DNA from: an uncultured Clostridia bacterium
GTDB taxonomy: Bacteria; Bacillota; Clostridia; Oscillospirales; CAG-272
Reading direction: 5' to 3'
DNA: 64,000 nt
NCBI GenBank assembly: GCA_944381075.1
Contig: CALWJT010000037.1
Coordinates: 57,879-121,878 of the forward strand
Shown: piece after piece, positions 13,618 through 39,042 of the stretch
How the letters are laid out: every line of letters starts with the position of its first letter
How positions within the stretch are numbered: the first letter of the stretch is position 1
Program-made: the position numbers and the translations under genes
Notes under the pieces: model-generated
Database searches by the model: none
What the model was told of the DNA's origin: nothing
Seen by the model: the letters and a program-made list of their open reading frames with translations, nothing else

Positions 13618-14586
13618 ATGAAATCATTTATCAGAGTTATGGCAGTCCTGCTCGTGTTTTCAATATTTTCGCTGGCGCTTGTCTCCTGCGGAAACGAAGA
13701 CACCTATGTCATCGGCATCAGCCAGCAGCAGCCGCATGTCGCCTTGGATACGGCGACCGAGGGCTTCAAGCAGGCGCTGATCGATCGGTTCGGCGAGGAC
13801 AAGGTGACCTTTGAAACGCAGAACGCACAGGGGGATCCCAGTACCTGTGTGACCATCGCCAACAACTTTGTTTCCAAAAATGTTGACCTTATCATGGCGA
13901 ATGGAACATCCGCCCTTCAGGCGGCGGCCAATGCCACGACGACCATTCCGATTCTCGGGACCTCCATCACCGAATACAGCGTCGCCCTGAATCTTGAAAA
14001 TTTTGACGGTACGGTCGGCGGAAATATTTCCGGCACCTCCGATCTTGCGCCGCTCGAGGAGCAGGCGCAGATGATCCTCGACCTTTTCCCGGAGGCCAAG
14101 AACGTAGGGCTCCTCTATTGTTCGGCGGAACCGAATTCCAAGTACCAAGTGGAGGTCGTCAAGGCCTATCTTGAGCAGAGAGGCATTGTCTGCACGGAAT
14201 ATACGTTTTCCGATTCCAACGACATTTCTCTTGTAGCGGAGCGCGCCTCCGATGAAAGCGACGTCATCTATATTCCGACTGACAATACGGCGGCTACCTG
14301 TACGGGCACCATCGATAACATTGTCCGTCCGAAAAAGGTGCCGATCATCGCGGGCGAGGAAGGGATCTGTTCCGGCTGCGGCGTTGCGGCATTTTCCATC
14401 AGCTATTATGAGATCGGCTATAAAACCGGCGAGATGGCGGCCGACATTCTGGAGGGAAAAGCGGATATTTCGACAATGGCGATCGAGTATGATCCGAATC
14501 CTGTGAAGAAATACAACAAGGAAATCTGTGAGGAACTCGGCATTTCCATTCCCGACGGATATACGGCGATTGAAGCGGGAGAATAA
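13618..14586 (+). CDS. ABC transporter substrate-binding lipoprotein (COG2984 / ABC_sub_bind family)
   Basis: Lipobox LALVSCGNED. Homologous over its length to the second SBP at 38045..39001. First gene after the T-box. Confidence 0.85.
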   Translation: MKSFIRVMAVLLVFSIFSLALVSCGNEDTYVIGISQQQPHVALDTATEGFKQALIDRFGEDKVTFETQNAQGDPSTCVTIANNFVSKNVDLIMANGTSALQAAANATTTIPILGTSITEYSVALNLENFDGTVGGNISGTSDLAPLEEQAQMILDLFPEAKNVGLLYCSAEPNSKYQVEVVKAYLEQRGIVCTEYTFSDSNDISLVAERASDESDVIYIPTDNTAATCTGTIDNIVRPKKVPIIAGEEGICSGCGVAAFSISYYEIGYKTGEMAADILEGKADISTMAIEYDPNPVKKYNKEICEELGISIPDGYTAIEAGE

Positions 14587-14589
14587 GGA

Positions 14590-15498
14590 ATGGGCGGTTG
14601 GCTGAATGCTTTGCCGGGCGCCGTGGCCCAGGGAATGATCTGGGGCATCATGGCAATCGGCGTATACATTACCTATAAAATACTCGATATCGCAGACCTT
14701 ACCGTGGATGGCTCGATGTGTACAGGCGCCGCGGTATGTACGATGCTGATGCTTTCCGGCGTCAACGTATGGCTTGCGGTTCTTGTCGCGATTTTGGCGG
14801 GGATGCTTGCCGGACTTCTAACGGGTATTTTTCATACGTTTATGGGGATTCCGGCGATTCTCGCCGGAATCCTGACGCAGCTGATTTTGTGGTCGGTGAA
14901 CCTCAAAATCATGGGAAAATCGAATCAATCCCTGCCGGCGCGCAGCTTCGATGTGCTCGTTACCCAGTTGAAACAGTGGGAGACGCTGCTTATCCTTGTC
15001 GCCTTCTGTGCGGTTCTCATCGCCGTTTTGTATTGGTTCTTTGGCACGGAGCTCGGCTCGTCCGTGCGCGCGACCGGCTGCAACATCGGCATGAGCCGCG
15101 CACAGGGCATCAACACGGATTTCAATAAGATCCTTGGACTGATGATTTCCAACGGAATCGTGGCGCTTTCCGGCGCGCTGCTCGCGCAGTATCAGGGCGC
15201 GGCGGATATCAGCATGGGACGCGGCGCCATTGTCACGGGGCTTGCGGCCGTCATCATCGGAGAGGCGGTTTTCTCGAAGGTCCTGCGCAATTTCGCCCTT
15301 CGCCTGACCGGCGTTGTGCTGGGAGGCGTCATCTATTATATCGTATATCAGACGGTTATTTATCTTGGATTTGACACCGACCTTCTGAAGATGCTTTCCG
15401 CAATCGTTGTGGCGTTCTTCCTTGCGGTCCCGTATTGGAATAAAAAATATTTCGTAAAACCGAAAAAGAAGGGGGATGGCGGAAATGCTGGAGCTTAA
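14590..15498 (+). CDS. ABC transporter permease (COG4120 type)
   Basis: Polytopic: GMIWGIMAIGVYITYKILDIADLTVDGS... parallels the permease at 37026..37985. Confidence 0.85.
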   Translation: MGGWLNALPGAVAQGMIWGIMAIGVYITYKILDIADLTVDGSMCTGAAVCTMLMLSGVNVWLAVLVAILAGMLAGLLTGIFHTFMGIPAILAGILTQLILWSVNLKIMGKSNQSLPARSFDVLVTQLKQWETLLILVAFCAVLIAVLYWFFGTELGSSVRATGCNIGMSRAQGINTDFNKILGLMISNGIVALSGALLAQYQGAADISMGRGAIVTGLAAVIIGEAVFSKVLRNFALRLTGVVLGGVIYYIVYQTVIYLGFDTDLLKMLSAIVVAFFLAVPYWNKKYFVKPKKKGDGGNAGA

Positions 15499-16279
15499 AA
15501 ACGTCACGAAGACCTTCAATCCCGGTACGGTGAACGAAAAGATCGCGCTCAAAAATCTCAATTTGCTGCTAAACGACGGGGACTTTGTCACGGTTATCGG
15601 CGGGAACGGAGCCGGAAAATCGACGATGCTCAATGCGATTGCAGGCGTCTGGAAGCCGGATGAGGGGCAGATCCTCATCGACGGCGTCGACGTGACGGGA
15701 ATGGTGGAATACAAGCGCGCTAAATTTCTCGGCCGCGTTTTTCAGGACCCGATGCTCGGTACGGCGGCGGACATGGAGATCGAAGAAAATCTCGCTCTTG
15801 CAGTAAGGCGCGGAAGGAGACGCGGCCTTGGCTGGGGGATCCGCAGCTCGGAACGTGAAAAGTACAAAGAGCTGCTGGCTGAGCTGGGACTGGGTCTCGA
15901 GCATCGTCTTACGAGCAAGGTGGGCCTGCTTTCCGGCGGACAGCGGCAGGCGGTGACGCTGCTTATGGCGACGCTGAACCGTCCGAAGCTGCTGCTCTTG
16001 GATGAGCATACGGCGGCGCTGGATCCTGCAACGGCGGCGAAGGTCATGTCGCTGACAGACCGCATCATCGACGAGGAGCATTTGACGGCGCTGATGGTCA
16101 CGCATAACATGCAGGACGCGATCACGCATGGAAACCGGCTCATTATGATGCATGAGGGGGGTATCATCTTCGATATATCCGGCGAGGAAAAAAGGAAGCT
16201 GACCATTGAGGACCTGCTCGACCGGTTCCGCAAGCTCAGCGGGACACAGTTTGCAAACGACCGCGCATTGCTGAATTGA
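15476..16279 (+). CDS. ABC transporter ATP-binding protein
   Basis: Walker A GGNGAGKST, signature LSGGQRQ, Walker B LLLLDEHTAALD. Overlaps the permease end. Confidence 0.9.
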   Translation: MAEMLELKNVTKTFNPGTVNEKIALKNLNLLLNDGDFVTVIGGNGAGKSTMLNAIAGVWKPDEGQILIDGVDVTGMVEYKRAKFLGRVFQDPMLGTAADMEIEENLALAVRRGRRRGLGWGIRSSEREKYKELLAELGLGLEHRLTSKVGLLSGGQRQAVTLLMATLNRPKLLLLDEHTAALDPATAAKVMSLTDRIIDEEHLTALMVTHNMQDAITHGNRLIMMHEGGIIFDISGEEKRKLTIEDLLDRFRKLSGTQFANDRALLN

Positions 16280-18491: not shown

Positions 18492-18722
18492 ATATGCCTC
18501 CGAAAAAAATTATGGTTCTCTGTAATAGGTGTTGCCGATTGCAGCGACCGAATCGAAAGAATCGGGAGCTGAAATGGTGATATGAAAGTTTTCTGTAATG
18601 TCAAAATTTTTATTTGTTGAGATAAGAGCATGAAGTACTTATCTTTAAAATGGTTATATCTCTTTTATTTTGTAAAAAAGTGTTGAAATATGGCATTTTT
18701 TTATAAAATAAATATAGATAAC

Positions 18723-18754
18723 AAAAAGAGAGCTGTTTTGACAGCTCTCTTTTT
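18723..18754. terminator. bidirectional intrinsic terminator (end of the Leu T-box operon)
   Basis: AAAAAGAGAGCTG-TTTTGA-CAGCTCTCTTTTT. Confidence 0.75.
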
Positions 18755-18856
18755 GTTATCGGTGACAAGGGCAATGTATGGCTGCGATATGACAGGATTT
18801 GTAAATCCGGCCCGCCGCCTGTGATTGCCTCTTGCCACACTTTCCGACCGCCGGCA

Positions 18857-21367
18857 TCAGCCTTCAGAAAGACCGAATTTTTTTGCCGCATCCTCGCGCA
18901 TTTTATATTTGAGGATCTTACCCGCTGCGTTCATCGGGAAGCTGTCCACGAAATCGACATAACGGGGGACCTTGTGTCTTGCCATGCTGGAGGCGACATA
19001 AGCTTTGATTTCCTCCTCCGTCGCGGTTTCGCCGTCGCGCAGGACGATGCACGCCATGATTTCCTCTCCATAGCGCTTGTCCGGAACCCCGATGACCTGC
19101 ACGTCCTTGACCTTGGGATACGTGTAGAGGAATTCCTCAATTTCCTTGGGATAGATGTTCTCGCCGCCGCGGATGATCATATCCTTGAGCCGTCCCGTGA
19201 TCCGGTAGCTGCCGTCCGGCGTGCGGCAGGCGAGATCTCCGGTATGCAGCCAGCCGTCTTTGTCAATAACGGCAGCGGTAGCGGACGGCATTTTGTAATA
19301 GCCCTTCATCACGTTGTAGCCGCGTGCGACAAACTCGCCGTTTGTACCGTCCGGCGCATCGAGCCCGGTTTCGGGATCTACGATCTTGCATTCCACATGC
19401 GGAAACGCATAGCCGACGGTTTCGCATCGGATGTCGAGCGGATCATCGAGCTCCGTCATGGTACAGCCGGGCGAGGACTCGGTCTGCCCATATACGCTGA
19501 CGATCCCTCTCATGTTCATTTCATCGGGCTGCGCCGCACGGCGCATGAGGTCCGCCGGACAGTTGGAGCCTGCCATGATGCCGGTACGCATATAGGAAAA
19601 GTCCGTTTTGCGGTAGTCCTCATGATTCATCATTGCGATGAACATCGTCGGCACGCCATGGAAGCAGGTGATATGCTCGTCGTTCACGCAGGCGAGCGAG
19701 GATTTCGGAGAAAAATAGGGAAGCGGCAGGACCGTCGCGCCATGCGTCATCGCGGCCGTCATCGCGAGCACCATTCCAAAGCAGTGGAACATCGGCACCT
19801 GGATCATCATGCGGTCCGCGGTAGAAAGGTCCATGCGGTCGCCGATACATTTCCCGTTGTTGACGACGTTGTAATGGGTGAGCATCACGCCTTTAGGAAA
19901 GCCGGTCGTGCCGGACGTATACTGCATGTTGCAGACATCCTGCGGGGATACCTTGGCGGCCATGGCGGCAACGGCTTCCGCCGAAACGCCCGTACTGCGC
20001 CGGAGCGCCTCCTCCCATGTCATGCAGCCCTTCTGGCGGAAGCCAACGGTGATGACGTTGCGCAGAAAGGGGAGCCTTTTTGCGTGGAGCGGTTCCATCG
20101 GCGCTTTTTTTTCAAGCTCCGGACAAAGCTCCGCTATGATCCCTGCATAATTGGAGTCACGCCATCCTTCGATCATGATAAGCGTATGCGTATCTGACTG
20201 ACGCAGCAGATATTCCGCCTCATGGATTTTGTAGGCCGTGTTGACTGTGACCAGCACCGCGCCGATTTTGGTCGTTGCCCAGAACGCGATATACCACTGA
20301 GGCAGATTGGTTGCCCATACCGCGACATGGGAGCCTGCGCGCACGCCCATGTCGACAAGCGCGCGGGCGAAGGTATCCACGTCGTCGCGGAACTGCGCAT
20401 AGGTGCGCGTATAGTCGAGTGTCGTGTATTTGAAGGCATACTGATCGGGAAATTCCTCGACGAGCCGGTCGAGCACCTCGGAAAAGGTAAGGTCGACGAG
20501 CGCCTCCTTCTGCCAGATGAATTTTCCGGTGTGCAGCTTGTTTTCATAGAGCTTTTTTTCCGCCCGCTCGCGGGTCCGGTAACGAGACATGTAGCTTGTG
20601 TAGTGCAGAAGGATGATGTCCATGTCGGTCATGTCGGGCATCCAAGCGGGGTCCCATTCCAGGGAGAGAAATCCGTCGTAGTTGATGGAGCGAAGTGCCA
20701 GCATCATGTCGTCCAAGGGCAGGGTACCTTCGCCGACGAGACGGTATTCCGCTTTGCCGCCGACCATCTCCGAATCCTTGAGGTGGACATGCCTGATATA
20801 AGCGCCGAGATTTTTCAGCGAGACCTCCGCGGACTCACCTGCCTTACGAAAGGTATGGTGCATATCCCAGAGCGCACCGAGGCTGTCGCAGGCGAAGCGG
20901 TCGAGCATCTGCATGAGCCTCGCTGTGTCCGCATAAATTCCGACGGTTTCGAGCAGCAGCGTGACACCTTTCTGTTCTGCCTCCGGCACAAGTGCTTTCA
21001 GATACCGATAGACGGTATCCTCTGTTTTTGGTACGTCTGTCCCGCAGGCGCGGATCCGCACATAGGGAATTTTCAGACTTGCCGCCGTCTCGATACAGGC
21101 GGCGATTTCCGTCGCGGTCACATCAAATTCCGCGGGGTCTCCGATATCGCATACGGAGTCGATGCAGGGGACGGAAAGCCCCATTTCCTGCAGGTTCCGA
21201 TAGGTGGCGCGCACCATATTTTGATCGAATACCGCGTTTTTTCCGGTAAACGTCGGATTGTGGATGTCGTGGATCTCGATTCCCTCATAGCCCAAGTCGC
21301 GGGCCTTCTCTAAATAATCCCCCCATTCGGGAAGATTCCATCCTTTGGTGGAAAATGAAAATTTCAT
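18857..21367 (-). CDS. fusion protein: N-terminal xylose-isomerase-like TIM barrel (sugar-phosphate isomerase/epimerase family) + C-terminal AMP-forming acyl-CoA synthetase/ligase
   Basis: aa 1-~265: MKFSFSTKGW...YEGIEIH...LLLETVG...LWDMHHT...HVHLKD...FLSLEWD (AP_endonuc_2-type barrel). aa ~300-836: YTSGTTGFPKGVMLTH, GYYKMP, HTGDLA..DGSYRITGRLKDMIIRGGENIYPKEIE, GKILK (ANL superfamily A3-A10 motifs). Confidence 0.85.
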   Translation of the reverse strand: MKFSFSTKGWNLPEWGDYLEKARDLGYEGIEIHDIHNPTFTGKNAVFDQNMVRATYRNLQEMGLSVPCIDSVCDIGDPAEFDVTATEIAACIETAASLKIPYVRIRACGTDVPKTEDTVYRYLKALVPEAEQKGVTLLLETVGIYADTARLMQMLDRFACDSLGALWDMHHTFRKAGESAEVSLKNLGAYIRHVHLKDSEMVGGKAEYRLVGEGTLPLDDMMLALRSINYDGFLSLEWDPAWMPDMTDMDIILLHYTSYMSRYRTRERAEKKLYENKLHTGKFIWQKEALVDLTFSEVLDRLVEEFPDQYAFKYTTLDYTRTYAQFRDDVDTFARALVDMGVRAGSHVAVWATNLPQWYIAFWATTKIGAVLVTVNTAYKIHEAEYLLRQSDTHTLIMIEGWRDSNYAGIIAELCPELEKKAPMEPLHAKRLPFLRNVITVGFRQKGCMTWEEALRRSTGVSAEAVAAMAAKVSPQDVCNMQYTSGTTGFPKGVMLTHYNVVNNGKCIGDRMDLSTADRMMIQVPMFHCFGMVLAMTAAMTHGATVLPLPYFSPKSSLACVNDEHITCFHGVPTMFIAMMNHEDYRKTDFSYMRTGIMAGSNCPADLMRRAAQPDEMNMRGIVSVYGQTESSPGCTMTELDDPLDIRCETVGYAFPHVECKIVDPETGLDAPDGTNGEFVARGYNVMKGYYKMPSATAAVIDKDGWLHTGDLACRTPDGSYRITGRLKDMIIRGGENIYPKEIEEFLYTYPKVKDVQVIGVPDKRYGEEIMACIVLRDGETATEEEIKAYVASSMARHKVPRYVDFVDSFPMNAAGKILKYKMREDAAKKFGLSEG

Positions 21368-21386: not shown

Positions 21387-22787
21387 TTAAATATTCTCTT
21401 CGTATGCGATCTTGTTGAGGGCGTTCACATATGCGCGGATGCTCGAACCGATGATATCCGTGGAAATCCCGTTCCCAGAGTAAAGCTTTCCGTTCTGGCG
21501 GAGTCTTACGAGCGCCGCGCCCATTGCCTCCTTGCCCTCGGTGACGGACCGGATCTGAAAATCGTCCAGCTCATATTTGATGCCGATGATTTTGTCCACC
21601 GCGAGGAAGGCGGCGTCGATCGGACCATGGCCGGAGGAGACCCCCTCAAGGATTTCGCCGTTTTTTTCCATTTTGATATAAGCGGTGGAGGAGATCCCGC
21701 TGCCGTTGGTGACAAGGAAGCCGAGCAGCCGATACGTATCGGGGACCTGGAGGGCGACGGCGGCGATGATCGCCTCCAGCTCCACGGCGCCGACGCTTTT
21801 GCCTGACGCCGTGCTCACGACGGATTCATATACCCTTTCCATGTCCTCGTCGGAAAGATCGTATCCGAGCTTTCGGACAGCGGCGGAAACCGCTGTGATA
21901 TCGTCCCCTTCGCCTAAGGCTGAAATGTCGTTTTCGCTGTCAGGCGCCGGCATCCGGACGGCGGGCGCGTCTGCGAATTTTGCGACCAAGCCAAGCGCGC
22001 GCAGCGCACGATGGATCTCCGTCATCCGGATGCCGCAGGAAAGCCCCATATCCTCCCCGCGCGTGCGCAGGATCCCCGCGATATCGTGCAGATCGGGCGC
22101 GGCGCCCGCGCCGCCGACGGCGACCGCGGCACCCGCGGCGCCGGCGCGGAGCGCGGAGATGGTGCAGGCGGCAGCGAGCGTGATTTCATCGGAGCATTGT
22201 ACTTCGAGCGGAATGTCGGCGAGTGCCGGAACCTTTTCGATGAGCTTTTCGACGAAGGCGGACAATTCCTCCGGCATCATGGTGCCGGCGCTGTCGCATA
22301 CAAGGATTTTGGCGGCTCCTGCTGAAATGGCGGTATCGATTGCCTTTGCAAGGTAGGCAAATTCGCTTCTGGTGGCATCTTCTGCGGCAAAAACGACATG
22401 ATCTGTGTGGCTTTTCGCCTGACTCACGAGCTCGGCTATCATTTCAAGGACAGCTTCCGGCTTTTTTCCGCATCGATATTCCATTCCTACGGCAGAGGTC
22501 GGCGCGGCGATAAAAAGCTCCGGCTTTTCGGCGGTACATATGGCGTTCCATGCCTCGTCGACAGACGACGCCGTATAGCCTGACGGCAGGGAAAGCGTAC
22601 TGTCCGATACGACGGCGGCGATGGTTTTCACCGCCATGGTGTCCGGCTTTGAATCCCGGATGGCGGGCAGTCGGATCGCGTCGAGTCCGATCCTGTCGAG
22701 CACCTTTGCGATCTCGACCTTTTCTCTAAGGGAAAGGGAATTTCCCATTTCATAAAGTGTAATGTCGGTAAATGTAACTTTTTTCAT
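21387..22787 (-). CDS. LeuA-like protein (HMGL-like barrel + LeuA allosteric/dimerisation domain) with degenerate catalytic motifs
   Basis: Start MKKVTFTDITLYEMGN with RBS GGAGG. The overall IPMS layout and C-terminal LeuA_dimer domain (GHGPIDAAFLAVDKIIG...SVTEGKEAMGAALVRLRQNGKLYSGNGISTDIIGSSIRAYVNALNKI) are kept. DTTLRDGEQ is replaced by DITLYEMGN and the HxH metal motif by QCS. The track ORF start at 22931 runs into the T-box. Confidence 0.8.
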   Translation of the reverse strand: MKKVTFTDITLYEMGNSLSLREKVEIAKVLDRIGLDAIRLPAIRDSKPDTMAVKTIAAVVSDSTLSLPSGYTASSVDEAWNAICTAEKPELFIAAPTSAVGMEYRCGKKPEAVLEMIAELVSQAKSHTDHVVFAAEDATRSEFAYLAKAIDTAISAGAAKILVCDSAGTMMPEELSAFVEKLIEKVPALADIPLEVQCSDEITLAAACTISALRAGAAGAAVAVGGAGAAPDLHDIAGILRTRGEDMGLSCGIRMTEIHRALRALGLVAKFADAPAVRMPAPDSENDISALGEGDDITAVSAAVRKLGYDLSDEDMERVYESVVSTASGKSVGAVELEAIIAAVALQVPDTYRLLGFLVTNGSGISSTAYIKMEKNGEILEGVSSGHGPIDAAFLAVDKIIGIKYELDDFQIRSVTEGKEAMGAALVRLRQNGKLYSGNGISTDIIGSSIRAYVNALNKIAYEENI

Positions 22788-22815
22788 TTTGACCTCCGTG
22801 CATCCGATAGAAAAA

Positions 22816-23110
22816 TCAAAAAGTCGCCCCTGTGAAGAATCACAGGGACGACAAATTTCATCTGTTCGCGGTACCACCCCGATTACCGTCCAAAAGAACG
22901 GTCTCTCGATCCGATTCGGCGAGGAACTCATCCTCGTTTAAATCGGTGCAGCTGTAACGGGTGCGCCCGTAGCCTCCTACTTTCGTTTTTTCAGAGACTC
23001 CGCTCCGGAACGAGACTGTACCTGCTTCCGCCGCCGCCTGCTCTCACCGACCGCAGGCTCTCTGGATGCCGTAAAGCTGCACATAATTCCATCGTCGCGT
23101 TTTTGTATAC
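22816..23110 (-). promoter_or_regulatory. T-box leader, leucine specifier (CUC)
   Basis: On the minus strand: AGAGAG (23063-58), distal loop GGTGAGA, T-box motif AATCGGGGTGGTACCGCG (22884-67), terminator GTCGTCCCTGTG..CACAGGGGCGAC+TTTTT (22852-16). Specifier loop is ..ACAGU-CUC-G (CUC = 23014-12), followed by UUCC pairing with GGAA (23090-87). Confidence 0.85.
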
Positions 23111-23118: not shown

Positions 23119-23147
23119 ACTATATCAGAAAATTTGATGTTTGTCAA
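23119..23147 (-). promoter_or_regulatory. consensus sigma-A promoter of the Leu T-box operon
   Basis: Minus strand: TTGACA (23147-42), 17 nt spacer, TGaTATAGT (-10 at 23124-19). Confidence 0.65.
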
Positions 23148-23233: not shown

Positions 23234-24028
23234 TTACTGTTTTGGTCCAAAGAGCCGTTCAAAGTTGCCGGCAAAGTACATTTCATATTCTTTTTCGGAA
23301 AGGCCGAAGGCTTTTACCCGTTCAAGCTCGCCTGTGGCGTTCCAGATCGGGAAGTCCGTTCCGAAAAAGAAACGGTCGATCCCGAATTTGTCAAACATGG
23401 AAAGGGCATAGTCGCGGGAGATAAACATCGTGGAGCTCGAGGTATCGAACCAGAGCCTGTCGGACGGCTCCAGCACGTCATGCGCCTCTTTCCAGCGCCG
23501 GTAGCCTCCGAAATGCGCTGCAATGACGGTAAGGTCCGGGATTTTTCTCATGACGGCGGCGAGCTTTGCGGGCGATGACGCTTCATACCGGTCGTCCCCC
23601 ATGTGCATGAGGATCGGGAGTCCGCGCTTTGCGATCGCACGGTAAAGAGGAAACCGTTTTTCGTCGTCGATATCGAATTTCTGAAAATCGGGATGCAGCT
23701 TGACGCCGCGAAGTCCGAGGCAGATCGCGCGGTCGAGCTCTTCTTCAAAATTCGGATAATCGGGATGGATGGAGGCAAGTGCCGTCATGCAGTCGTGGCT
23801 CCGAATGACCTGCGCCATGAAATCCGTGATCGTTTCAGTCTGCTCCGGCGTGACTGCGGCAGAGCAGACGAGAAAATGGGAAATGCCGGCAGCTTTTCCG
23901 TCTGCCAGCAGATTCGTGACGGAAGCCGGCGCGCAGTAGCGCATGTCGTAAAAGCCTCCGATGGATTTGGAGACCTTTTCTGCGATTTTATCGGGAAAAA
24001 TATGCGTGTGAGCGTCTATGATTTTCAT
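23234..24028 (-). CDS. amidohydrolase-2 family metal-dependent hydrolase (TIM barrel, COG2159-like)
   Basis: MKIIDAHTHIFPDKI (HxH metal site), ...GVKLHPDFQ...ILMHMGD...AAHFGG...FGTDFP are typical Amidohydro_2 motifs. Own promoter TTGCCA-17-TATAAT (24141-24113, minus strand). Confidence 0.8.
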   Translation of the reverse strand: MKIIDAHTHIFPDKIAEKVSKSIGGFYDMRYCAPASVTNLLADGKAAGISHFLVCSAAVTPEQTETITDFMAQVIRSHDCMTALASIHPDYPNFEEELDRAICLGLRGVKLHPDFQKFDIDDEKRFPLYRAIAKRGLPILMHMGDDRYEASSPAKLAAVMRKIPDLTVIAAHFGGYRRWKEAHDVLEPSDRLWFDTSSSTMFISRDYALSMFDKFGIDRFFFGTDFPIWNATGELERVKAFGLSEKEYEMYFAGNFERLFGPKQ

Positions 24029-24321: not shown

Positions 24322-24596
24322 TAACAAGCAAAAGCTGTGACGGAGAGGATCCGAATACGATGCTTTCAGAGAGCCGGTGGCAGGTGAGAACCGGCAGCGG
24401 AGGATTCAGGCGGTCTATCGCTCCCGAGCTGGAATCGTGAAAATCGCGTGCGATGAAGTAGCGCTTCCCGTGATTGCTGCGTCAAGGCATGGGACTTGTC
24501 GGAGTCCGAGAGGGGCGGTCAGATGGCCGCAATTTGAGTGGTACCGCGGATGTATATTTACACCCGTCTCAAAGAGATTGAGACGGGTGTTTTTTG
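24322..24596 (+). promoter_or_regulatory. T-box leader, isoleucine specifier (AUC)
   Basis: Base stem AGCT/AGCT, K-turn GTGA (24337-40), AGAGAG (24368-73), distal loop GGTGAGA, T-box motif AATTTGAGTGGTACCGCGG (24531-49), terminator ACACCCGTCTC..GAGACGGGTGT+TTTTTT (24560-96). Specifier loop is ..GGUCU-AUC-G (24417-20), then CUCC pairing with GGAG (24342-45). Confidence 0.85.
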
Positions 24597-24676: not shown

Positions 24677-26953
24677 ATGGACGCAAAAACACAGACCATG
24701 TCGGGGCAGCTTTTGGAAATTGCCGAGCGCATTCGGGAGATGCGGCGGGTATCGGGCTTTTCTGAGGAGGAAATGGCGCAAAAAACGGATACCTCGCTCG
24801 CCGAATACCGTCAGTATGAGGCGGGGGCTTTGGATTTTCCTTTTACCTTTATCCATAAGTGCGCGATCGCCTTCGGCATCAGCATCGCGGATATCCTGGA
24901 AGGGGAGAGCCCGAAGCTTTCTTCCTATATGGTGACAAGAAAAGGCGAAGGGCAGCAGACGGCGAGGGAGGACGGCATCAGCATCCAAAACTTGGCGCCG
25001 CTGTTCCGCGGAAAGCTGGCAGAGCCGTACTGGGTACGGTACGAGTATTCGGAGGAGCTGCAGCACCGGCCGATCCATTTGACGACGCATTCCGGCCAGG
25101 AATTTGACATCGTGCTTTCCGGAAAGCTCAAGGTCCAGGTCGGCTCCAATACGGAGATCCTGAACGAGGGGGACAGCATCTTCTATGATTCCTCCACCCC
25201 CCACGGCATGATCGCCGTAGACGGTCAGGACTGCTGCTTCTGCGCCGTCGTCATTCCCGGCGAGAGTACGCCGGAACGGGAGATCCGGGACAGTGTGGTC
25301 TCTGCCCGGCGCGTAGAAAAGCTCGTCTGCAGCAAATTCATCGAAACCGTCGAGGACGAGAACGGAACGCCGCTTGAGATCCGTTATAAGGATCAGGAGC
25401 ACTTCAACTTCGCGTTCGATATCGTCGATGAGATCGCCGCCAAATATCCGGATAAAACGGCGATGGTCCATCTGGACCGCGACAAAAACGAAAGGCGCTT
25501 TACTTTTGCGGACATGAAGCGTGCTTCTTCCCAGTGCGCGAATTATTTCAAATCGCTCGGCATCCGGAAAGGCGACCGTGTGATGCTGGTCCTCAAGCGC
25601 CACTATGCGTTCTGGTTCGCGATCCTCGGCCTGCATAAGCTCGGCGCGATCGCGGTCCCCGCTACCAATCTTTTGAAGGACCATGATTTTGTGTATCGCT
25701 TCAACGCGGCCGGCATTTCCGCTATTCTTTGTACAGCGGACGGCGACGTGGCGGAGCAGGTCGAGCTTGCCGAGCGGGAGTCCCCGACGCTGAAAACAAA
25801 AATTCTTGTCGGCGGTACGCGCGACGGCTGGCATGATTTTGACAGCAGCTACAGCCTGTTTTCCGGAAAGTTCGCACGCGGCGAGGACGCGCCCTGCGGC
25901 TCGGATACGATGCTGATGTTCTTTACCTCCGGCACGACCGGCTATCCGAAAATCGCCGCGCACAGCTATACATATCCCTTAGCGCATTTCGCTACGGCAA
26001 AATACTGGCATTCGGTGGATTCCGACGGCCTGCACTTTACCATTTCCGATACGGGCTGGGGAAAGGCGCTCTGGGGCAAGCTCTACGGACAGTGGCTCTG
26101 CGAGGGCGCGGTGTTTACCTATGATTTCGACCGCTTCCATGCCGCCGATATCCTGCCGCTGTTTGCGAAATATCATATCACGACGTTCTGTGCGCCTCCG
26201 ACCATGTACCGCATGATGATCAAGGAGGATATCTCCAAATACGATTTCAGCTCGGTCAAACGGGCGACGACGGCAGGGGAGGCGCTCAATCCGGAAGTAT
26301 TCCTCCAGTTTGAAAAGGCGACGGGGCTCAAGCTCATGGAAGGCTTCGGCCAGACGGAAACCACGCTTACCATTGCCAATCTGACGGGGACGACCCACAA
26401 GCTCGGCGCAATGGGAAAGCCGGTCCCGCCCTATCAGATCGAATTGCTGTCACCGGACGGCAAACCGGTCGCGGACGGCGAAACGGGAGAGATCTGCATT
26501 CGCGCGGAAGAGGGCAATCTCCCGTGCGGACTGTTCCAAGGCTATTGGGGCGAGCCGGAGAAAACGGCGGAGGTTTGGCACGACGGCTATTATCATACGA
26601 GAGACGTCGCATGGCGGGATGAGGAGGGCTCTTTTTGGTACGTCGGCCGCAGCGACGACGTCATCAAATCCTCCGGCTACCGCATCGGACCATTTGAGAT
26701 CGAGAGCGTTATCATGGAGCTTCCGTATGTGCTGGAGTGCGGCGTTTCCGCGGCGCCGGACGAGGTCCGCGGACAGGTCGTCAAGGCGAGCGTCGTCCTG
26801 ACGAAGGGAACCGAGCCGTCCGAAGCGCTGAAAAAAGAAATTCAGGAATACGTCAAGGAAAAGACCGCGCCGTATAAATATCCCCGCATCGTCGTGTTCC
26901 GTGATGAGCTGCCGAAAACCATCAGCGGAAAGATTATCCGCAATCAGCTGTGA
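24677..26953 (+). CDS. fusion protein: XRE-type HTH + cupin domain + AMP-forming (medium-chain/ACSM-like) acyl-CoA synthetase
   Basis: Start MDAKTQTMSGQLLEIAERIREMRRVSGFSEEEMAQKT (HTH_3) with RBS GGAGGGAAAGG. Cupin: HSGQEFDIVLSGKLKV..G.....L.EGDSIFYDSSTPHG. ANL motifs: FFTSGTTGYPK, GYWG.PEKT, YHTRDVA, GRSDDVIKSSGYRIGPFEIES, PKTISGKI. The track ORF (from 24377) reads through the T-box. Confidence 0.85.
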   Translation: MDAKTQTMSGQLLEIAERIREMRRVSGFSEEEMAQKTDTSLAEYRQYEAGALDFPFTFIHKCAIAFGISIADILEGESPKLSSYMVTRKGEGQQTAREDGISIQNLAPLFRGKLAEPYWVRYEYSEELQHRPIHLTTHSGQEFDIVLSGKLKVQVGSNTEILNEGDSIFYDSSTPHGMIAVDGQDCCFCAVVIPGESTPEREIRDSVVSARRVEKLVCSKFIETVEDENGTPLEIRYKDQEHFNFAFDIVDEIAAKYPDKTAMVHLDRDKNERRFTFADMKRASSQCANYFKSLGIRKGDRVMLVLKRHYAFWFAILGLHKLGAIAVPATNLLKDHDFVYRFNAAGISAILCTADGDVAEQVELAERESPTLKTKILVGGTRDGWHDFDSSYSLFSGKFARGEDAPCGSDTMLMFFTSGTTGYPKIAAHSYTYPLAHFATAKYWHSVDSDGLHFTISDTGWGKALWGKLYGQWLCEGAVFTYDFDRFHAADILPLFAKYHITTFCAPPTMYRMMIKEDISKYDFSSVKRATTAGEALNPEVFLQFEKATGLKLMEGFGQTETTLTIANLTGTTHKLGAMGKPVPPYQIELLSPDGKPVADGETGEICIRAEEGNLPCGLFQGYWGEPEKTAEVWHDGYYHTRDVAWRDEEGSFWYVGRSDDVIKSSGYRIGPFEIESVIMELPYVLECGVSAAPDEVRGQVVKASVVLTKGTEPSEALKKEIQEYVKEKTAPYKYPRIVVFRDELPKTISGKIIRNQL

Positions 26954-26973
26954 TCCCGCAAGGAGGGCTTTTC

Positions 26974-27654
26974 GTGAATATTTCTCGCGTGACATTGTTC
27001 GCCGGCCACTATGGAAGCGGCAAAACCAATATTGCGGTAAATTATGCGGAATACCTTGCAGCGCTGGGATATCCTGTAACGATTGCGGACCTTGATATCG
27101 TCAATCCCTATTTCCGCACGTCAGACAGCGAGGCGGAGCTTGCCGCCCGCGGCATACGGCTGCTTCGTCCCGTTTATGCGAATACCAATCTCGATCTTCC
27201 GGCACTGCCGGCGGAGATGTACGATGTCGTACGGGATACCGACCGGTTTGCGGTGCTGGATATCGGCGGAGACGACAGGGGCGCATATGCGCTGGGAAGG
27301 TATGCCCCTTCTATTCTCGAGGAAAATCGTTATGAAATGCTGTTCGTCGCGAATTTTTACCGTCCGCTGACAAGAGATGCGGGAGCGGCGCTCGAGGTGA
27401 TGCGGGAGATCGAATGTGCCTGCGGCATCCGTTTTACCGCGCTTGTCAACAACTCCAACCTTGGAGAAGAAACGACGCCGGAGGCGGTGCTGGAAACGGC
27501 GCCGGAGATCGAGCGGCTTTCCGGCATGTGCGGGCTTCCCGTCAAAATGACGACGGTGCGCCGGAGACTCGTTCCGGCGCTTGCGGACAGCGTGCGGCAT
27601 TTATTTGCGCTGGACCTTCAGAAAAAATATTTTGAATCATTTCCATCCGCTTAA
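26974..27654 (+). CDS. P-loop NTPase (SIMIBI class, MinD/ParA/CooC-like) of unknown role
   Basis: GTG start 6 nt after AAGGAGGG. Walker A FAGHYGSGKTNIAVN, Walker B-like AVLDIGGDD. Embedded between the ligase and the oxidoreductase genes. Confidence 0.7.
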   Translation: MNISRVTLFAGHYGSGKTNIAVNYAEYLAALGYPVTIADLDIVNPYFRTSDSEAELAARGIRLLRPVYANTNLDLPALPAEMYDVVRDTDRFAVLDIGGDDRGAYALGRYAPSILEENRYEMLFVANFYRPLTRDAGAALEVMREIECACGIRFTALVNNSNLGEETTPEAVLETAPEIERLSGMCGLPVKMTTVRRRLVPALADSVRHLFALDLQKKYFESFPSA

Positions 27655-27689
27655 AAACGGATGTCTGATAGGAAGGAGATCAAAAACCG

Positions 27690-27896
27690 ATGGCAAAGCT
27701 TACGTTTCAAACGGACCTCTGCAAGGGCTGCGGACTGTGCGTGGACGCCTGTCCGAAAAAAATCCTTGCGCTGGCAAAGGGCAAGATCAACAAAAAAGGA
27801 CACAATCCGGTCGAGGTAATCGACGAAAGTCTCTGTATCGGATGCGCTTTCTGCGCGACGATGTGTCCGGACTGCATCATTACGGTCGAAAAATAA
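27690..27896 (+). CDS. 2x[4Fe-4S] ferredoxin, delta subunit of 2-oxoacid:ferredoxin oxidoreductase
   Basis: 68 aa with CKGCGLCVDACP and CIGCAFCATMCP cluster motifs. Confidence 0.85.
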   Translation: MAKLTFQTDLCKGCGLCVDACPKKILALAKGKINKKGHNPVEVIDESLCIGCAFCATMCPDCIITVEK

Positions 27897-27941
27897 AATA
27901 TACCGCTTTCCGGTTCATGCCGGAGGCTATGGAGGTTAAGT

Positions 27942-29006
27942 ATGGCAGAAAAAGTTTTGATGAAAGGGAATGAGGCGATCGCCGAGGCGGCAATCGCCGC
28001 CGGGTGCCGCCATTATTACGGATATCCGATCACGCCTCAGACGGAGATCGCCGCCTATATGGCGAAGCGCATGCCAAAGATAGGAGGCGTGTTCCTTCAG
28101 GCGGAAAGCGAGATTGCCGCCATCAACATGGTGTATGGGACCGCGTCGGCGGGATACCGCGTCATGACGTCCTCGTCGAGTCCCGGCATATCGCTCAAAT
28201 CCGAGGGACTGTCCTACATCGCAGGAAGCGATCTGCCCTCTCTTGTTGTCAACGTACAGCGCGGCGGTCCGGGTCTTGGAAGCATCCAGCCTGGGCAGTC
28301 CGATTATTTTCAGGCGACCAAGGGCGGAGGACACGGCGACTATCATATGATCGTGCTGGCGCCTGCGTCCGTGCAGGAGATGGCGAGCCTGACGGTAAAG
28401 GGGTTCGATCTTGCGGACAAATACCGCATGACGTCTATGATTCTTGCCGACGGAACCATGGGGCAGATGATGGAGCCGGTGTCCTTTGAACATATCGAAG
28501 TCAAGACCTATGACAAGCCGTGGGCGCTGACAGGCACGCGGGGGAAGCGGAAGCATAACATCATTACCTCACTTTCCCTTGTTCCCAAGGAGCTGGAGGA
28601 ATGGAATTTCTCCCGTTATGAAAGATATCGCCTCATTGAAGAGAACGAGGTGATGTACGAGGAATTCATGATGGAGGACGCAGAGGTCTGCATCGTCGCG
28701 TTCGGCATTTCCGCGCGCGTGTCGCAGAATGCGATCCGCATGGCGCGGGCCAAGGGTATACGCGCGGGGATGATCCGTCCTATCACGCTCTGGCCGTTCC
28801 CGAAAGCGCCGCTTGCCAAGGCTGCGGACAAGGTACGCGCGTTTATCAGCGTTGAGCTTTCCATGGGACAGATGATCGAGGACGTCGAGCTTGCAACAAG
28901 ATGCAAAAGGCCGGTGCTCCTCTGCAACCGGGTGGGCGGCATGATTCCTTCGCCGGAATCGGTGCTCGCAAAGATCGAAGAAGCGATGGGAGGCGACAGA
29001 ACATGA
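27942..29006 (+). CDS. 2-oxoacid:ferredoxin oxidoreductase alpha subunit (VorB/KorA type, ~350 aa)
   Basis: MAEKVLMKGNEAIAEAAI.AGC..YYGYPITPQTEI... and ...GGPGLGSIQP.QSDY are canonical for the alpha subunit. Confidence 0.9.
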   Translation: MAEKVLMKGNEAIAEAAIAAGCRHYYGYPITPQTEIAAYMAKRMPKIGGVFLQAESEIAAINMVYGTASAGYRVMTSSSSPGISLKSEGLSYIAGSDLPSLVVNVQRGGPGLGSIQPGQSDYFQATKGGGHGDYHMIVLAPASVQEMASLTVKGFDLADKYRMTSMILADGTMGQMMEPVSFEHIEVKTYDKPWALTGTRGKRKHNIITSLSLVPKELEEWNFSRYERYRLIEENEVMYEEFMMEDAEVCIVAFGISARVSQNAIRMARAKGIRAGMIRPITLWPFPKAPLAKAADKVRAFISVELSMGQMIEDVELATRCKRPVLLCNRVGGMIPSPESVLAKIEEAMGGDRT

Positions 29007-29773
29007 TCGTATTTGAAAAACCGAAGGCGCTGACCGACGCGCCGCTGCATTATTGTCCGGGCTGCACGCACGGGATCATCCACAGGCTGGTCGCCGAAGC
29101 GATCGATTCGCTCGGCATCGAGGGGATCACCGTCGGCGTAGCACCGGTCGGCTGCGCGGTGTTCGCCTACAACTACTTTTCCTGTGATATGGTCGAAGCC
29201 GCGCATGGACGTGCGCCGGCGGTCGCGACGGGACTCAAGCGCGCGGAGCCGGAGAATATCATTTTTACCTATCAGGGCGACGGTGACCTTGCCTCCATTG
29301 GCATGGCGGAAACCGTGCATGCCGCTGCGAGAAACGAGAACATCACCATTGTTTTTGTCAACAATGCAATCTACGGGATGACGGGCGGACAGATGGCGCC
29401 GACCTCGCTTCCCGGTCAGGTCACACAAACATCTCCTTACGGACGCGATACGTCGGTCTGCGGATTTCCTGTGCGCGTGTGCGAGATGCTCTCTCAGGTG
29501 GACGGCGCCGAATACATCGAGCGCGTCGCCGTCAATAACGTGAAAAACGTCAAGAACGCTGGACGCGCGATCAAAAAGGCGTTTGAAAATCAGATCAACA
29601 AAAAGGGATTTTCCTTGATAGAGGTGATCTCCTCCTGTCCTACCAACTGGGGGCTCACGCCGCAGAAGGCGCTGGAATGGGTAGAGGAAAAAATGATCCC
29701 GTATTATCCGCTCGGCGTATATAAGGACCGCAGCGCCGGATTTGTTTACGGAAAGGAGGGCGCGGCAAGATGA
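29003..29773 (+). CDS. 2-oxoacid:ferredoxin oxidoreductase beta subunit (TPP-binding)
   Basis: Start MIVFEKPKALTD.PLHYCPGCTHG (ATGA overlap with alpha). GDGD...NN..YGMTGGQ TPP motif. The track ORF start at 28901 is an upstream extension. Confidence 0.9.
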   Translation: MIVFEKPKALTDAPLHYCPGCTHGIIHRLVAEAIDSLGIEGITVGVAPVGCAVFAYNYFSCDMVEAAHGRAPAVATGLKRAEPENIIFTYQGDGDLASIGMAETVHAAARNENITIVFVNNAIYGMTGGQMAPTSLPGQVTQTSPYGRDTSVCGFPVRVCEMLSQVDGAEYIERVAVNNVKNVKNAGRAIKKAFENQINKKGFSLIEVISSCPTNWGLTPQKALEWVEEKMIPYYPLGVYKDRSAGFVYGKEGAAR

Positions 29774-30306
29774 GCACGACACAGATTTTGATCGCCGGCT
29801 TCGGCGGACAGGGCGTTCTGTTCGCCGGGAAATTCCTTGCTTATAAAGGGATGCTGGAGGAAAAGCAGATCAGCTGGCTGCCGTCCTATGGGCCGGAGAT
29901 GCGCGGCGGAACGGCAAATTGCAGCGTTATTGTCAGTGACACGCCGGTCGGCTCTCCGATTGTCACGGAACCGGATGTGCTTGTGGCGATGAATCTGCCT
30001 TCCTTCGATAAATATGAAAACGACACGGTCAAGGGAGGACTGATTCTTGTCGACAGCTCCCTGATCGAACGAAAAGCCGTTCGAGAGGACGTCAGCGTAT
30101 TTTACATACCGGCGACCCGAATGGCGCAGGAAGCGGGTTTTCCCACGCTTGCCAATATGATCTTGGTGGGCAAGCTGCTGCGCGAGTGTCCGGAGATGGG
30201 ATACGAAAATACCGAGGCCGCGCTCAAAAAGGTAGTTTCCGCCAAGCATATGGATCTTTTTGATTTGAATCTGAAGGCGATCGACATGGGGTATCGTTTT
30301 GCTTGA
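29770..30306 (+). CDS. 2-oxoacid:ferredoxin oxidoreductase gamma subunit
   Basis: [17 protein letters not shown]........[24 protein letters not shown] is the gamma-subunit signature. 4-nt overlap with beta. Confidence 0.9.
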
Positions 30307-39001: not shown

Positions 39002-39042
39002 GGAAGAGACCTTCTTTCGTTGGAATTTGAATTGAATCGAGA

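Follow-up and report, generated by a model that had tools for sequence, protein, structure and literature searches.

The ability of rumen and gut anaerobes to synthesise leucine, isoleucine and valine from branched-chain volatile fatty acids has been recognised from the 1960s onwards; these acids are growth factors of fibre-degrading bacteria and are in use as feed additives. Separate end-product-binding subunits occur in branched-chain amino-acid synthesis as the AHAS small subunits IlvN and IlvH, which are small ACT-domain proteins. Leucine formation by isovalerate carboxylation is physiologically well established (PMC7356843, citing Allison 1962 and 1966). In histidine-related regulation, a catalytically dead paralogue of histidyl-tRNA synthetase, HisZ, is the regulatory subunit of the HisG(S) ATP phosphoribosyltransferase (PMC9734150).

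The residues on which LeuA-type catalysis and feedback rely are well described. Across the DRE-TIM metallolyases one Arg is invariant and essential, and an Asp and two His bind the essential metal (PMC11532901). The accessory domain, H379/Y410 and the GxGERxG motif are required for catalysis and acetyl-CoA binding (PMC9860122, PMC2704214), and in the Mtb enzyme G531, G533, L535, A536, A565 and A567 are leucine-site or feedback residues (PMC2704214). A Leu T-box before canonical leuA has also been described (PMC2700814). Here we analyse a LeuA look-alike, referred to as pseudo-LeuA, that is encoded together with an acyl-CoA ligase in a 64,000-nt stretch of DNA from an uncultured Clostridia bacterium (the window), and we compare it with its relatives in other genomes and metagenomes. 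Full-text literature searches yielded no description of the pseudo-LeuA family, its operon or a LeuA-derived accessory protein.

Organization of the operon and its transcription signals

The features of the locus are collected in Table 1. The start codon of pseudo-LeuA was assigned to the ATG at 22787, which lies 3′ of the T-box terminator; a longer ORF of 514 aa, reaching up to 22931, extends into the T-box and was rejected as spurious. Pfam searches with the translated protein gave matches to HMGL-like (PF00682, residues 14–256, E 3.4e-33) and to LeuA_dimer (PF08502, residues 335–460, E 3.6e-31). These hits bear out the LeuA layout, i.e. an HMGL-like barrel followed by a C-terminal LeuA_dimer domain, that had been assigned in the preliminary description, and the strings quoted there are all found in the protein (DITLYEMGN at residues 8–16, QCSDEIT at 197–203, GGAGAAPD at 225–232, and GHGPIDA).

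Table 1. Coordinates of the pseudo-LeuA operon, its control elements and the neighbouring genes in the window.
Feature	Position	Strand	Remarks
Sigma-70-type promoter	23119..23147	-	TTGACA-17-TATAGT with TG extension; 11/12 consensus, consensus match only; directly 5′ of T-box
T-box leader, RF00230	22841..23104	-	102 bits vs. gathering score 93; E 5.9e-22
T-box intrinsic terminator	22823..22852	-	13-bp stem and T run; overlaps T-box sequence (terminator/antiterminator switch)
Pseudo-LeuA gene	21387..22787	-	466 aa and stop; RBS GGAGG at 22793..22797
HMGL-like (DRE-TIM) barrel, residues 1–262	22002..22787	-	without Arg/Asp pair (Y12, E13), HxH (Q197, S199) and GxGERxG loop
Variable linker, residues 263–298	21894..22001	-	in place of LeuA accessory subdomain I (catalytic His/Tyr region)
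Accessory subdomain II, residues 299–345	21753..21893	-	kept; aligns with subdomain II helices of MAMS 6e1j
LeuA-type regulatory (LeuA_dimer) domain, residues 346–466	21390..21752	-	GxGPIDA, EAMG and GxGISTDI kept
Xylose-isomerase-like TIM barrel (AP_endonuc_2), N-terminal part of fusion	20528..21367	-	RBS AAAGGAG
AMP-forming acyl-CoA ligase domain of fusion	18857..20527	-	PRK12583 model, 669 bits
Terminator-like hairpin closing the two-gene operon	18717..18760	-	
Amidohydro_2 gene	23234..24028	-	frequent companion of the gene pair; here 5′ of Leu T-box promoter
Divergent second T-box	24328..24574	+	specifier AUC (Ile) at 24417..24419
HTH_3, Cupin_2 and MbcS-like acyl-CoA ligase	24677..26953	+	NF047394 MbcS 417 bits, under cut-off of 850
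Walker-A protein	26950..27654	+	
Ferredoxin	27690..27896	+	
VorB-type 2-oxoacid:ferredoxin oxidoreductase	alpha 27942..29006; beta 29003..29773; gamma 29770..30306	+	VorB NF005507 538 bits vs. cut-off of 399

A Leu T-box upstream of the gene had likewise been proposed, and this assignment holds: the leader scores above the gathering threshold of its RNA family, the specifier is CUC (Leu) at 23014..23012 followed by the purine G at 23011, and the Leu class extends over the whole family. Leu specifiers were found upstream of pseudo-LeuA in 67 of 68 relatives (CTC in 61 and CTG in 6; one was unaligned), and the specifier of the Synergistes T-box is also CUC. The presence of a Leu T-box before a leuA-type gene could, however, simply be an inheritance from an ancestral leuA.

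Downstream of pseudo-LeuA lies a gene encoding a TIM barrel fused to an acyl-CoA ligase (TIM-ligase). The gap between the pseudo-LeuA stop and the TIM-ligase start, which has its own RBS, is 19 nt; in Synergistes jonesii there is a 4-nt overlap instead. TIM-ligase follows directly 3′ of pseudo-LeuA, as a single ORF, in each of the 75 genome loci of sufficient length. The reverse search, started from the TIM domain, located pseudo-LeuA immediately upstream in 78 of 80 metagenome loci. Two TIM-ligase loci are without it, one in the 6 kb upstream (L142) and the other within 6 kb on both sides (L082), from which we presume that the ligase is able to function by itself. The best 150 representatives included no natural fusion of pseudo-LeuA to the ligase. 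Stand-alone TIM proteins, and with them a three-subunit system, were suggested by short hits on long contigs; these hits were set aside as frameshift fragments from error-prone assemblies, because the adjoining PFOR gene is fragmented as well. The identity of the ligase across relatives is 71–79%, and the TIM-fused protein is a candidate isovalerate-CoA ligase.

Loss of the catalytic machinery

The register of the motifs was established by HMMER against PDB chains of IPMS and MAMS, by MAFFT against E. coli LeuA, and in a 194-sequence MAFFT alignment. The three independent alignments were concordant, which rules out mis-registered motifs. The preliminary description had equated DTTLRDGEQ of the active enzymes with DITLYEMGN. 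The replacements of Arg by Y12 and of Asp by E13 (Arg13 and Asp14 in E. coli LeuA) stand, but the trailing GN does not lie under EQ, owing to a deletion of 2–4 residues. The metal-ligand motif HTHDDLG aligns with QCSDEIT both in the PDB chains and in E. coli LeuA, so that the two metal-binding His are exchanged for Gln and Ser. The region corresponding to NGIGERAGN is replaced by a shortened loop, aligned as GG---AGAA, and the Thr of the PDTVG motif is Ser. Moreover, a deletion has removed accessory subdomain I (E. coli GSGAFAHSSGIHQDG..., bearing the catalytic His and Tyr).

The same losses are seen throughout the family. Neither metal-ligand position is His in any of 193 relatives, and the gap at subdomain I is present in 193 of 193 members. 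The Arg of the LRDGxQ motif is found in only 109 of the 193, and the position of its Asp is occupied by E in 108, by Q in 25 and by D in 17. The alignments thus agree, family-wide, with the earlier view of an IPMS look-alike whose catalytic apparatus is gone, and pseudo-LeuA is predicted to be without IPMS activity. In NCBIfam, every LeuA model scores far under its cut-off for pseudo-LeuA, with 284.3 bits vs. a cut-off of 532 for the best one (NF002086) and 262.4 vs. 598.7 bits for TIGR00973. Citramalate and homocitrate synthases were rejected as identities of the protein, given their much lower scores and the absence of the same catalytic residues. Names given by JGI sometimes label pseudo-LeuA proteins “2-isopropylmalate synthase”.

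Conservation and fold of the family

Pseudo-LeuA is carried by at least 591 species genomes of Bacillota and Synergistota, and about 115 representatives remain at 50% identity. Within the family, identity is highest in the regulatory domain (71%) and subdomain II (59%), followed by the barrel (45%) and the linker (26%). Conservation in 95% or more of the members applies to 41 of 121 positions in the regulatory domain vs. 19 of 262 in the barrel. The motifs GxGP(I)DA, EAMG and GxGxxTDI, which are common to E. coli LeuA, are invariant across the family; together with the PF08502 match they confirm that the LeuA-type regulatory domain is intact, as had been described, and that this holds family-wide. 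This pattern of conservation indicates that the family is under purifying selection, with the fold kept and the catalytic residues lost, and that it is functional and not decaying.

In the AF2 model the pLDDT of the barrel is mostly above 90, and that of the linker is below 50 at residues 272–287. Foldseek superimposed the barrel on IPMS catalytic domains (3ewb, 3eeg, 3rmj) with an rmsd of 1.7–1.9 Å. Searched alone against PDB sequences, the C-terminal domain gave just a weak match to LiCMS, and Mtb LeuA was reached only by a profile. By the profile-based alignment the Mtb residues G531, G533, L535, A536, A565 and A567 map onto the regulatory motifs of pseudo-LeuA; over the pocket residues V551–A558 of Mtb the alignment is unreliable, the profile included. 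The retention of the regulatory motifs is no more than suggestive of leucine binding.

Genomic neighbourhood and pathway context

In other genomes the Amidohydro_2 gene is often situated directly 3′ of the TIM-ligase gene. Within the flanks that were fetched, an OFOR gene was detected at 34 of the 63 genome loci; for the metagenome loci the figure was 17 of 42. The operon of Synergistes has the order pseudo-LeuA, TIM-ligase and a PFOR-type OFOR. Many loci also contain paralogous, MbcS-like ligases behind Ile (ATC) or Val (GTA/GTC) T-boxes, and the HTH-cupin-MbcS-like ligase of the window is a candidate 2-methylbutyrate-CoA ligase. In the loci examined, with flanks of about 10 kb, pseudo-LeuA never adjoins leuBCD. 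By its gene content, the operon is part of a probable cluster for the activation and reductive carboxylation of branched-chain fatty acids. It is this context, with its Vor/PFOR-type oxidoreductases and the ligase paralogues behind Ile and Val T-boxes, that makes a leucine-controlled ligase meaningful.

Possible functions of pseudo-LeuA

The reading that we favour, and to which we give an about even chance, is that pseudo-LeuA acts as a non-catalytic, leucine-sensing regulatory subunit of a ligase that activates isovalerate for carboxylation on the way to leucine. A role as a sensor or regulatory subunit had been suggested in the preliminary description. It is supported indirectly by the near-obligate and tightly spaced synteny with TIM-ligase in both search directions, by the concentration of constraint in the regulatory domain and subdomain II, and by the C-terminal half, which scores as LeuA and not as CimA (133.6 bits to the LeuA model vs. 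29.2 and 14.3 bits to CimA models). The 2-oxoacid sensor offered there as a second option is less likely, if the barrel was meant, since this has lost both its 2-oxoacid/metal site and its acetyl-CoA groove. Conserved adjacency and the tight spacing of the genes would be in keeping with a physical complex of pseudo-LeuA with the ligase.

According to the mechanism that we propose, pseudo-LeuA and TIM-ligase would be co-transcribed from the Leu-specific T-box, where uncharged tRNA-Leu would permit read-through into both genes, as judged from the RNA family, the specifier codon and the terminator. The ligase would turn isovalerate into isovaleryl-CoA, and the adjoining Vor-type (elsewhere PFOR-type) oxidoreductase would convert the latter to 4-methyl-2-oxopentanoate by reductive carboxylation. 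Transamination of this product would yield leucine, which corresponds to the classical rumen isovalerate-carboxylation pathway. Pseudo-LeuA would dimerise via its regulatory domains and dock on the ligase, with the fused TIM domain as the probable adaptor; binding of free leucine to the docked protein would then lower ligase activity. An ATP-costly salvage route would in this way be placed under two layers of control, T-box attenuation and LeuA-type end-product feedback, like de novo leucine synthesis. On a more tentative level, a little short of an even chance, the two degenerate barrels, i.e. the dead LeuA and the sugar-isomerase-like TIM fused to the ligase, may together form an allosteric module that moves LeuA-type leucine feedback onto an isovalerate-CoA ligase, with the Ile and Val branches served likewise by HTH-cupin modules.

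Part of the barrel is nevertheless well kept. Family-wide, it retains the residues D8, S98, D137, A138, R140 and D165 of the LeuA active-site face and a family-specific conserved loop (P96, M102, E103, K109), which could form a residual or new ligand site. The TIM domain of the window protein has a full E/D/H/E-like set, and three barrel-type proteins co-occur. Such features would suit a neo-functionalised enzyme, whose barrel, by itself or in concert with the TIM domain and the Amidohydro_2 protein, carries out another reaction, metal-independent or trans-metal, with a substrate related to isovalerate or leucine. We judge this unlikely. The residues essential in DRE-TIM enzymes (PMC11532901) are all lost or variable, the Arg, the metal His and subdomain I as described above and the Glu as well, and among the folded parts of the protein the barrel shows the least constraint. 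About 17% of members carry replacements at the metal-ligand positions of the TIM domain (E140K, E237V, D168N), which also weakens the case for this domain as an obviously active isomerase. In addition, the pathway needs no extra chemistry.

The identity of the ligand can be questioned too. Identity between the regulatory domain and its E. coli LeuA counterpart is no more than about 30%, 22 conserved positions of the domain are family-specific, and related domains bind Ile in citramalate synthase (3f6g match). Pseudo-LeuA might accordingly sense 4-methyl-2-oxopentanoate, isovalerate or its CoA ester, or another branched-chain amino acid, possibly with activation of the ligase as the outcome. 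We assign a low probability to this option, since the domain scores as LeuA-type and not CimA-type, and the Leu T-box ties the operon to Leu in nearly all of the relatives.

An assembly role without sensing is similarly improbable. A pseudo-LeuA dimer could merely stabilise or dimerise the ligase, or tether it to the oxidoreductase for channelling of isovaleryl-CoA, with the regulatory domain kept for dimerisation. This would agree with the Pfam name of LeuA_dimer as a dimerisation domain, with the tight synteny with TIM-ligase, and with the channelling complexes that DRE-TIM barrels form with CoA-dependent enzymes; structures of the DmpG/DmpF type are among the Foldseek fold matches of pseudo-LeuA. 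Yet the residues of loops and strands that in LeuA line the leucine site (GxGP-x-DA and EA-x-G) are invariant, beyond the demands of dimerisation (PMC2704214). A specific tether to the oxidoreductase is disfavoured because this partner varies between VorABC and a single-chain PFOR type, and about half of the loci have none in the neighbourhood.

The loss of catalytic residues would also be expected of a functionless, decaying leuA relic, but family-wide conservation rules out a recent pseudogene and effectively refutes such decay, as the reading frame and RBS are intact, the same losses recur throughout the family in both phyla, and the regulatory domain is the most conserved part.

If the allosteric module proposed above exists, the long-unknown genes by which rumen and gut anaerobes make leucine through isovalerate carboxylation would be identified, together with the logic of their control. 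For activation and for carboxylation the cluster supplies candidate genes, and the design that it suggests is an amino-acid-specific T-box and a sensor module for each ligase. In bacteria, pseudo-LeuA would moreover give a clear example of a biosynthetic enzyme reused as a ligand-sensing pseudoenzyme for another enzyme, which bears on the evolution of allostery. For annotation, counting pseudo-LeuA as LeuA would lead to false predictions of de novo leucine synthesis in metabolic reconstructions from gut MAGs.

Comparison with known systems

With respect to rumen isovalerate carboxylation, the gene content fits (an acyl-CoA ligase with a Vor/PFOR-type OFOR, and T-boxes for Leu, Ile and Val), and the carriers, Clostridia and Synergistes, come from the rumen and gut, in line with the physiology (PMC7356843). 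The classical work gave labelling patterns and neither genes nor regulation. MbcS of Staphylococcus aureus, which activates branched short-chain acids (PMC10026030), is the nearest curated relative of the ligases behind Ile and Val T-boxes (NF047394). The partner ligase of pseudo-LeuA, in contrast, belongs to another, PRK12583-like subfamily with a TIM-barrel N-terminal domain, and MbcS supplies fatty-acid synthesis, not amino-acid synthesis. In IlvN and IlvH, as in our favoured reading of pseudo-LeuA, feedback inhibition of a catalytic protein is brought about by a distinct, stand-alone protein that binds the ligand; however, the two are ACT-domain proteins and not dead paralogues of another enzyme.

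A dead paralogue of a pathway-related enzyme that serves as the end-product-sensing subunit of another amino-acid-biosynthesis enzyme is found in HisZ-HisG(S) (PMC9734150), and the likeness is one of working principle only. The folds and partners are unrelated, and the complex and allostery of HisZ are experimental, whereas those of pseudo-LeuA are proposed from genomics. Canonical LeuA shares with pseudo-LeuA the HMGL-like barrel, subdomain II and the LeuA_dimer domain with its glycine/proline motifs, and possibly a Leu T-box (PMC2700814). Pseudo-LeuA differs in being devoid of the Arg/Asp pair, HxH, the GxGERxG loop and subdomain I, and in having an acyl-CoA ligase gene as its partner. The MAMS of Brassicaceae are also descendants of IPMS by modular loss (PMC11532901), and 6e1j is the top Foldseek match of pseudo-LeuA and among its best PDB sequence matches. 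MAMS, though, kept catalysis and lost the regulatory domain, and the pseudo-LeuA family did the reverse.

Sequence features and loss of the catalytic apparatus

The pseudo-LeuA gene, encoding a look-alike of isopropylmalate synthase (IPMS, LeuA), has an unbroken reading frame of 466 codons; a longer, 514-aa ORF from a mechanical listing was rejected as a real gene, since it extends into the upstream T-box. The preliminary description had assigned a LeuA layout to the protein, and both parts of it were matched by Pfam: residues 14-256 as the HMGL-like barrel (E 3.4e-33) and residues 335-460, C-terminal, as LeuA_dimer (E 3.6e-31). All the strings quoted in that description were found in the protein.

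Features of the Leu operon and the surrounding cluster (positions in the window)
Feature	Position	Strand	Remarks
Promoter of Leu operon	23147..23119	-	
Leu T-box	23104..22841	-	
Terminator hairpin	22852..22823	-	just upstream of pseudo-LeuA
GGAGG	22793..22797	-	5′ of pseudo-LeuA start
Start ATG of pseudo-LeuA	22787	-	
pseudo-LeuA	21387..22787	-	
Gap between pseudo-LeuA and TIM-ligase			19 nt, contains RBS
TIM-ligase	18857..21367	-	836 aa; AP_endonuc_2 (xylose-isomerase-like) TIM barrel + AMP-forming acyl-CoA ligase
Operon-end terminator	18760..18717	-	
Second T-box	24328..24574	+	Ile specifier AUC at 24417..24419; divergent from Leu operon; own promoter and terminator
Genes under Ile T-box	24677..30306	+	
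Walker-A protein	26950..27654	+	234 aa, GHYGSGKT
Amidohydro_2 gene	23234..24028	-	N-terminal HxH intact (DAHTHI); upstream of Leu T-box promoter
ABC transporter set	13618..16279	+	ABC_sub_bind / BPD_transp_2 type, with ATPase
ABC transporter set	36260..39058	-	ABC_sub_bind / BPD_transp_2 type, with ATPase

Motif register was checked by HMMER alignments to solved chains of IPMS and of MAMS (methylthioalkylmalate synthase of Brassicaceae) and by a MAFFT alignment to E. coli LeuA, which concur: the motifs had not been mis-registered and the ligands are absent. DTTLRDGEQ of E. coli LeuA is represented by DITLYEM with a deletion of 2-4 residues, Arg being replaced by Y12 and Asp by E13, and GEQ being lost. 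The earlier reading, DITLYEMGN, was right as to the Arg and Asp replacements, but its GN does not lie under EQ, as the deletion follows DITLYE. HTHDDLG reads QCSDEIT (His to Q197 and His to S199), as previously reported; the region formerly read as GGAGAAPD aligns with NGIGERAGN as GG---AGAA, a shortened loop; and PDTVG reads CDSAG (Thr to Ser). Accessory subdomain I (in E. coli LeuA, GSGAFAHSSGIHQDG...) is reduced to a short unconserved linker with about 35 residues missing, a deletion that had been overlooked, so that the erasure of catalytic motifs was, if anything, understated. In active enzymes the essential metal is bound by Asp/His/His and a subdomain I His serves as the catalytic base (PMC11532901), the acetyl-CoA groove is formed by GxGERxG together with H379 and Y410 (PMC2704214), and activity requires the accessory domain (PMC9860122). 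All NCBIfam curated LeuA models scored far under their cut-offs with pseudo-LeuA (best 284 bits vs. 532). Judged by these alignments, pseudo-LeuA is very probably a non-catalytic LeuA paralogue.

A disabled but conserved family

Many relatives with 44-99% identity occur in Oscillospiraceae, Acutalibacteraceae, Lachnospiraceae, Christensenellaceae and Synergistaceae, including the cultured Synergistes jonesii, and a pseudo-LeuA gene is present in at least 591 GTDB species genomes. When 1.84 billion representatives were scanned exhaustively with HMMER, about 115 full-length family representatives stood out at the 50% level, cleanly apart from canonical LeuA, which begins only at about 220 bits and whose matches are split into two stretches because subdomain I is missing from the query family. 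In an alignment of 193 members, none has His at either of the two metal-His positions, subdomain I is missing in all, the LeuA Arg is retained in only 109, and the position equivalent to MAMS Glu227 varies. In the regulatory domain, by contrast, equivalents of E. coli LeuA G425, G427, G462, G477, G479, T482 and D483 are invariant, and those of P428, D430 and A431 are retained in 95-98% of members. Mean pairwise identity within the family is 45% in the barrel (19/262 positions conserved at ≥95%), 26% in the linker (0/36), 59% in subdomain II (12/47) and 71% in the regulatory domain (41/121). The barrel was modeled confidently by AlphaFold2 with 27 relatives (pLDDT mostly >90) and superposed on IPMS catalytic domains at 1.7-1.9 Å; the fold is retained and the chemistry lost. 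The pattern of conservation indicates that catalytic loss belongs to the family as a whole and is under selection, rather than reflecting decay.

Leucine T-box and regulatory domain

The leader before pseudo-LeuA is a bona fide T-box (RF00230-type), at 102 bits above the gathering score of 93; its specifier is CUC, in agreement with the Leu T-box proposed earlier. T-boxes were found by Rfam upstream of the gene in 14/18 short loci, and a Stem I HMM detected 68 in 80 genome loci, with the specifiers CTC (61) and CTG (6) and one unaligned. T-boxes are uncommon outside Bacillota; the leader of Synergistes jonesii is a weaker one (73.9 bits, under the gathering score), with CUC as well.

The C-terminal 171 residues alone scored 133.6 bits with a LeuA model vs. 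29.2 and 14.3 bits with two citramalate synthase models, so this domain is LeuA-derived. Together with the glycine motifs invariant in 193 members, this bears out the claim that a LeuA-type regulatory domain was kept. In a profile of the C-terminal half, G531-N-G533-P-L535-A536 of M. tuberculosis LeuA aligns with the family G-x-G-P-I-D and the A565/A567 region with the invariant E-A-M-G; PMC2704214 describes these M. tuberculosis residues as contacting leucine or as abolishing feedback. Over V551-A558 the alignment is unreliable. Its LeuA derivation favors leucine as the ligand of the domain, without proving it. In three proteins of the 50% representative library (P0369, P0359, P0386), LeuA_dimer domains of the family type, with 57-64% identity to the window protein, follow N-terminal membrane-protein fragments (MFS_1, MBOAT, 7TMR-HDED); these are either chimeric assemblies or genuine alternative architectures.

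Near-obligate pairing with TIM-ligase

Among 80 genome loci, the gene for TIM-ligase directly follows pseudo-LeuA wherever the contig extends, and TIM and ligase form a single ORF in 75/75. Identity to the window proteins is 71-79% for the ligase part, 43-52% for pseudo-LeuA and 33-56% for the TIM domain, the ligase being by far the most conserved of the three. When the search was reversed, with the TIM domain on metagenome contigs as its starting point, pseudo-LeuA proved to lie immediately upstream in 78/80 loci. Of the other two, L096 has it 374 nt upstream, and in L142 it was not found in the 6 kb upstream of TIM-ligase. It was also missing from a further locus, L082 (GCA_009741665.1, VOFI01001440.1), over 6 kb to each side. 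The T-box is absent from L082 too, and that assembly is error-rich, with many frameshifts. The 120 best-scoring TIM-domain relatives are ligase fusions or fragments thereof, except two odd chimeras (P0232, P0238), and the 'short' relatives examined proved to be frameshift artefacts.

The TIM domain of the window protein retains the canonical metal-ligand positions. About 17% of relatives carry replacements there (E140K, E237V), and D168N occurs in about one third of members, so that catalysis by this domain is not a conserved requirement. Invariant residues include W167, D198, N186-L187-G188 and W238. The constant pairing with pseudo-LeuA suggests that the TIM domain is an adaptor; like the pseudo-LeuA barrel, it may be degenerate.

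Surrounding cluster and pathway

Genes under the Ile T-box encode an HTH_3-Cupin_2-MbcS-like acyl-CoA ligase, a Walker-A protein, a ferredoxin and the alpha, beta and gamma subunits of a VorB-type 2-oxoacid:ferredoxin oxidoreductase (OFOR). In other genomes a Val T-box (GUA or GUC) precedes a further HTH-cupin-ligase paralogue; the HTH-cupin module may be the Ile/Val counterpart of pseudo-LeuA. MbcS is a branched-chain carboxylate ligase known from S. aureus (PMC10026030). In many loci the Walker-A protein is conserved at this place, after the MbcS-like ligase and before ferredoxin and Vor; it matched no Pfam or NCBIfam model, and may be an ATPase that serves in maturing or assembling the oxidoreductase.

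Linkage of the pair to OFORs and to Ile/Val T-box ligases is frequent, an OFOR gene being present inside the examined flanks in 34/63 genome and 17/42 metagenome loci. In Synergistota (L083, Synergistes jonesii JPZR01000019.1, 9714..17561) and several MAGs (L085-L087 share this order), pseudo-LeuA and TIM-ligase are followed by a single-chain PFOR-type enzyme, which scores as the pyruvate:ferredoxin oxidoreductase equivalog at 1677 bits. The Amidohydro_2 gene is directly downstream of TIM-ligase in about 25/63 genome loci. In the classical rumen pathway, summarized in PMC7356843 from the work of Allison and co-workers, Leu, Ile and Val arise by carboxylation and amination of isovalerate, 2-methylbutyrate and isobutyrate. 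The gene content of the cluster is that expected of this pathway, and the operon probably makes leucine from isovalerate.

Proposed role and comparison with known systems

The ligase would make isovaleryl-CoA for reductive carboxylation to 4-methyl-2-oxopentanoate, and a pseudo-LeuA dimer would dock on it via the TIM domain, bind free leucine and restrain it. Control would thus act in two tiers, by tRNA charging via the T-box and by free leucine via allostery. To this composite, in which pseudo-LeuA is, much as the preliminary description proposed, a leucine-sensing regulator of the ligase, we give about even chances. It is weakened by L142 and L082, two loci where pseudo-LeuA is missing from the 6 kb that precede TIM-ligase, and by the failure to find a Rosetta-stone pseudo-LeuA::ligase fusion among the best 150 representatives. 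A Leu T-box can precede canonical leuA and could have been inherited from an ancestral leuA, which counts against the model (PMC2700814). Pseudo-LeuA may instead have a new catalytic activity, since conservation extends to some residues on the active-site face and to a loop peculiar to the family (P96, M102, E103, K109); it may play a purely structural or channelling role, or sense a different ligand. That it is a relic is ruled out by family conservation.

The family is visible in databases, as 'alpha-isopropylmalate synthase regulatory domain-containing protein' at NCBI and at times as '2-isopropylmalate synthase' at JGI, and is not explained there. Full-text searches, which covered only a minority of subscription journals, found no published description of this family or its operon, or of a ligase regulator derived from LeuA. 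MAMS took the opposite evolutionary path from IPMS, keeping catalysis and losing the regulatory domain (PMC11532901). The closest functional analogy to the proposed pseudo-LeuA/ligase pair is HisZ/HisG(S) (PMC9734150). Pseudoenzymes that serve as allosteric subunits are a known principle, which would here be combined with a T-box-controlled amino-acid pathway.
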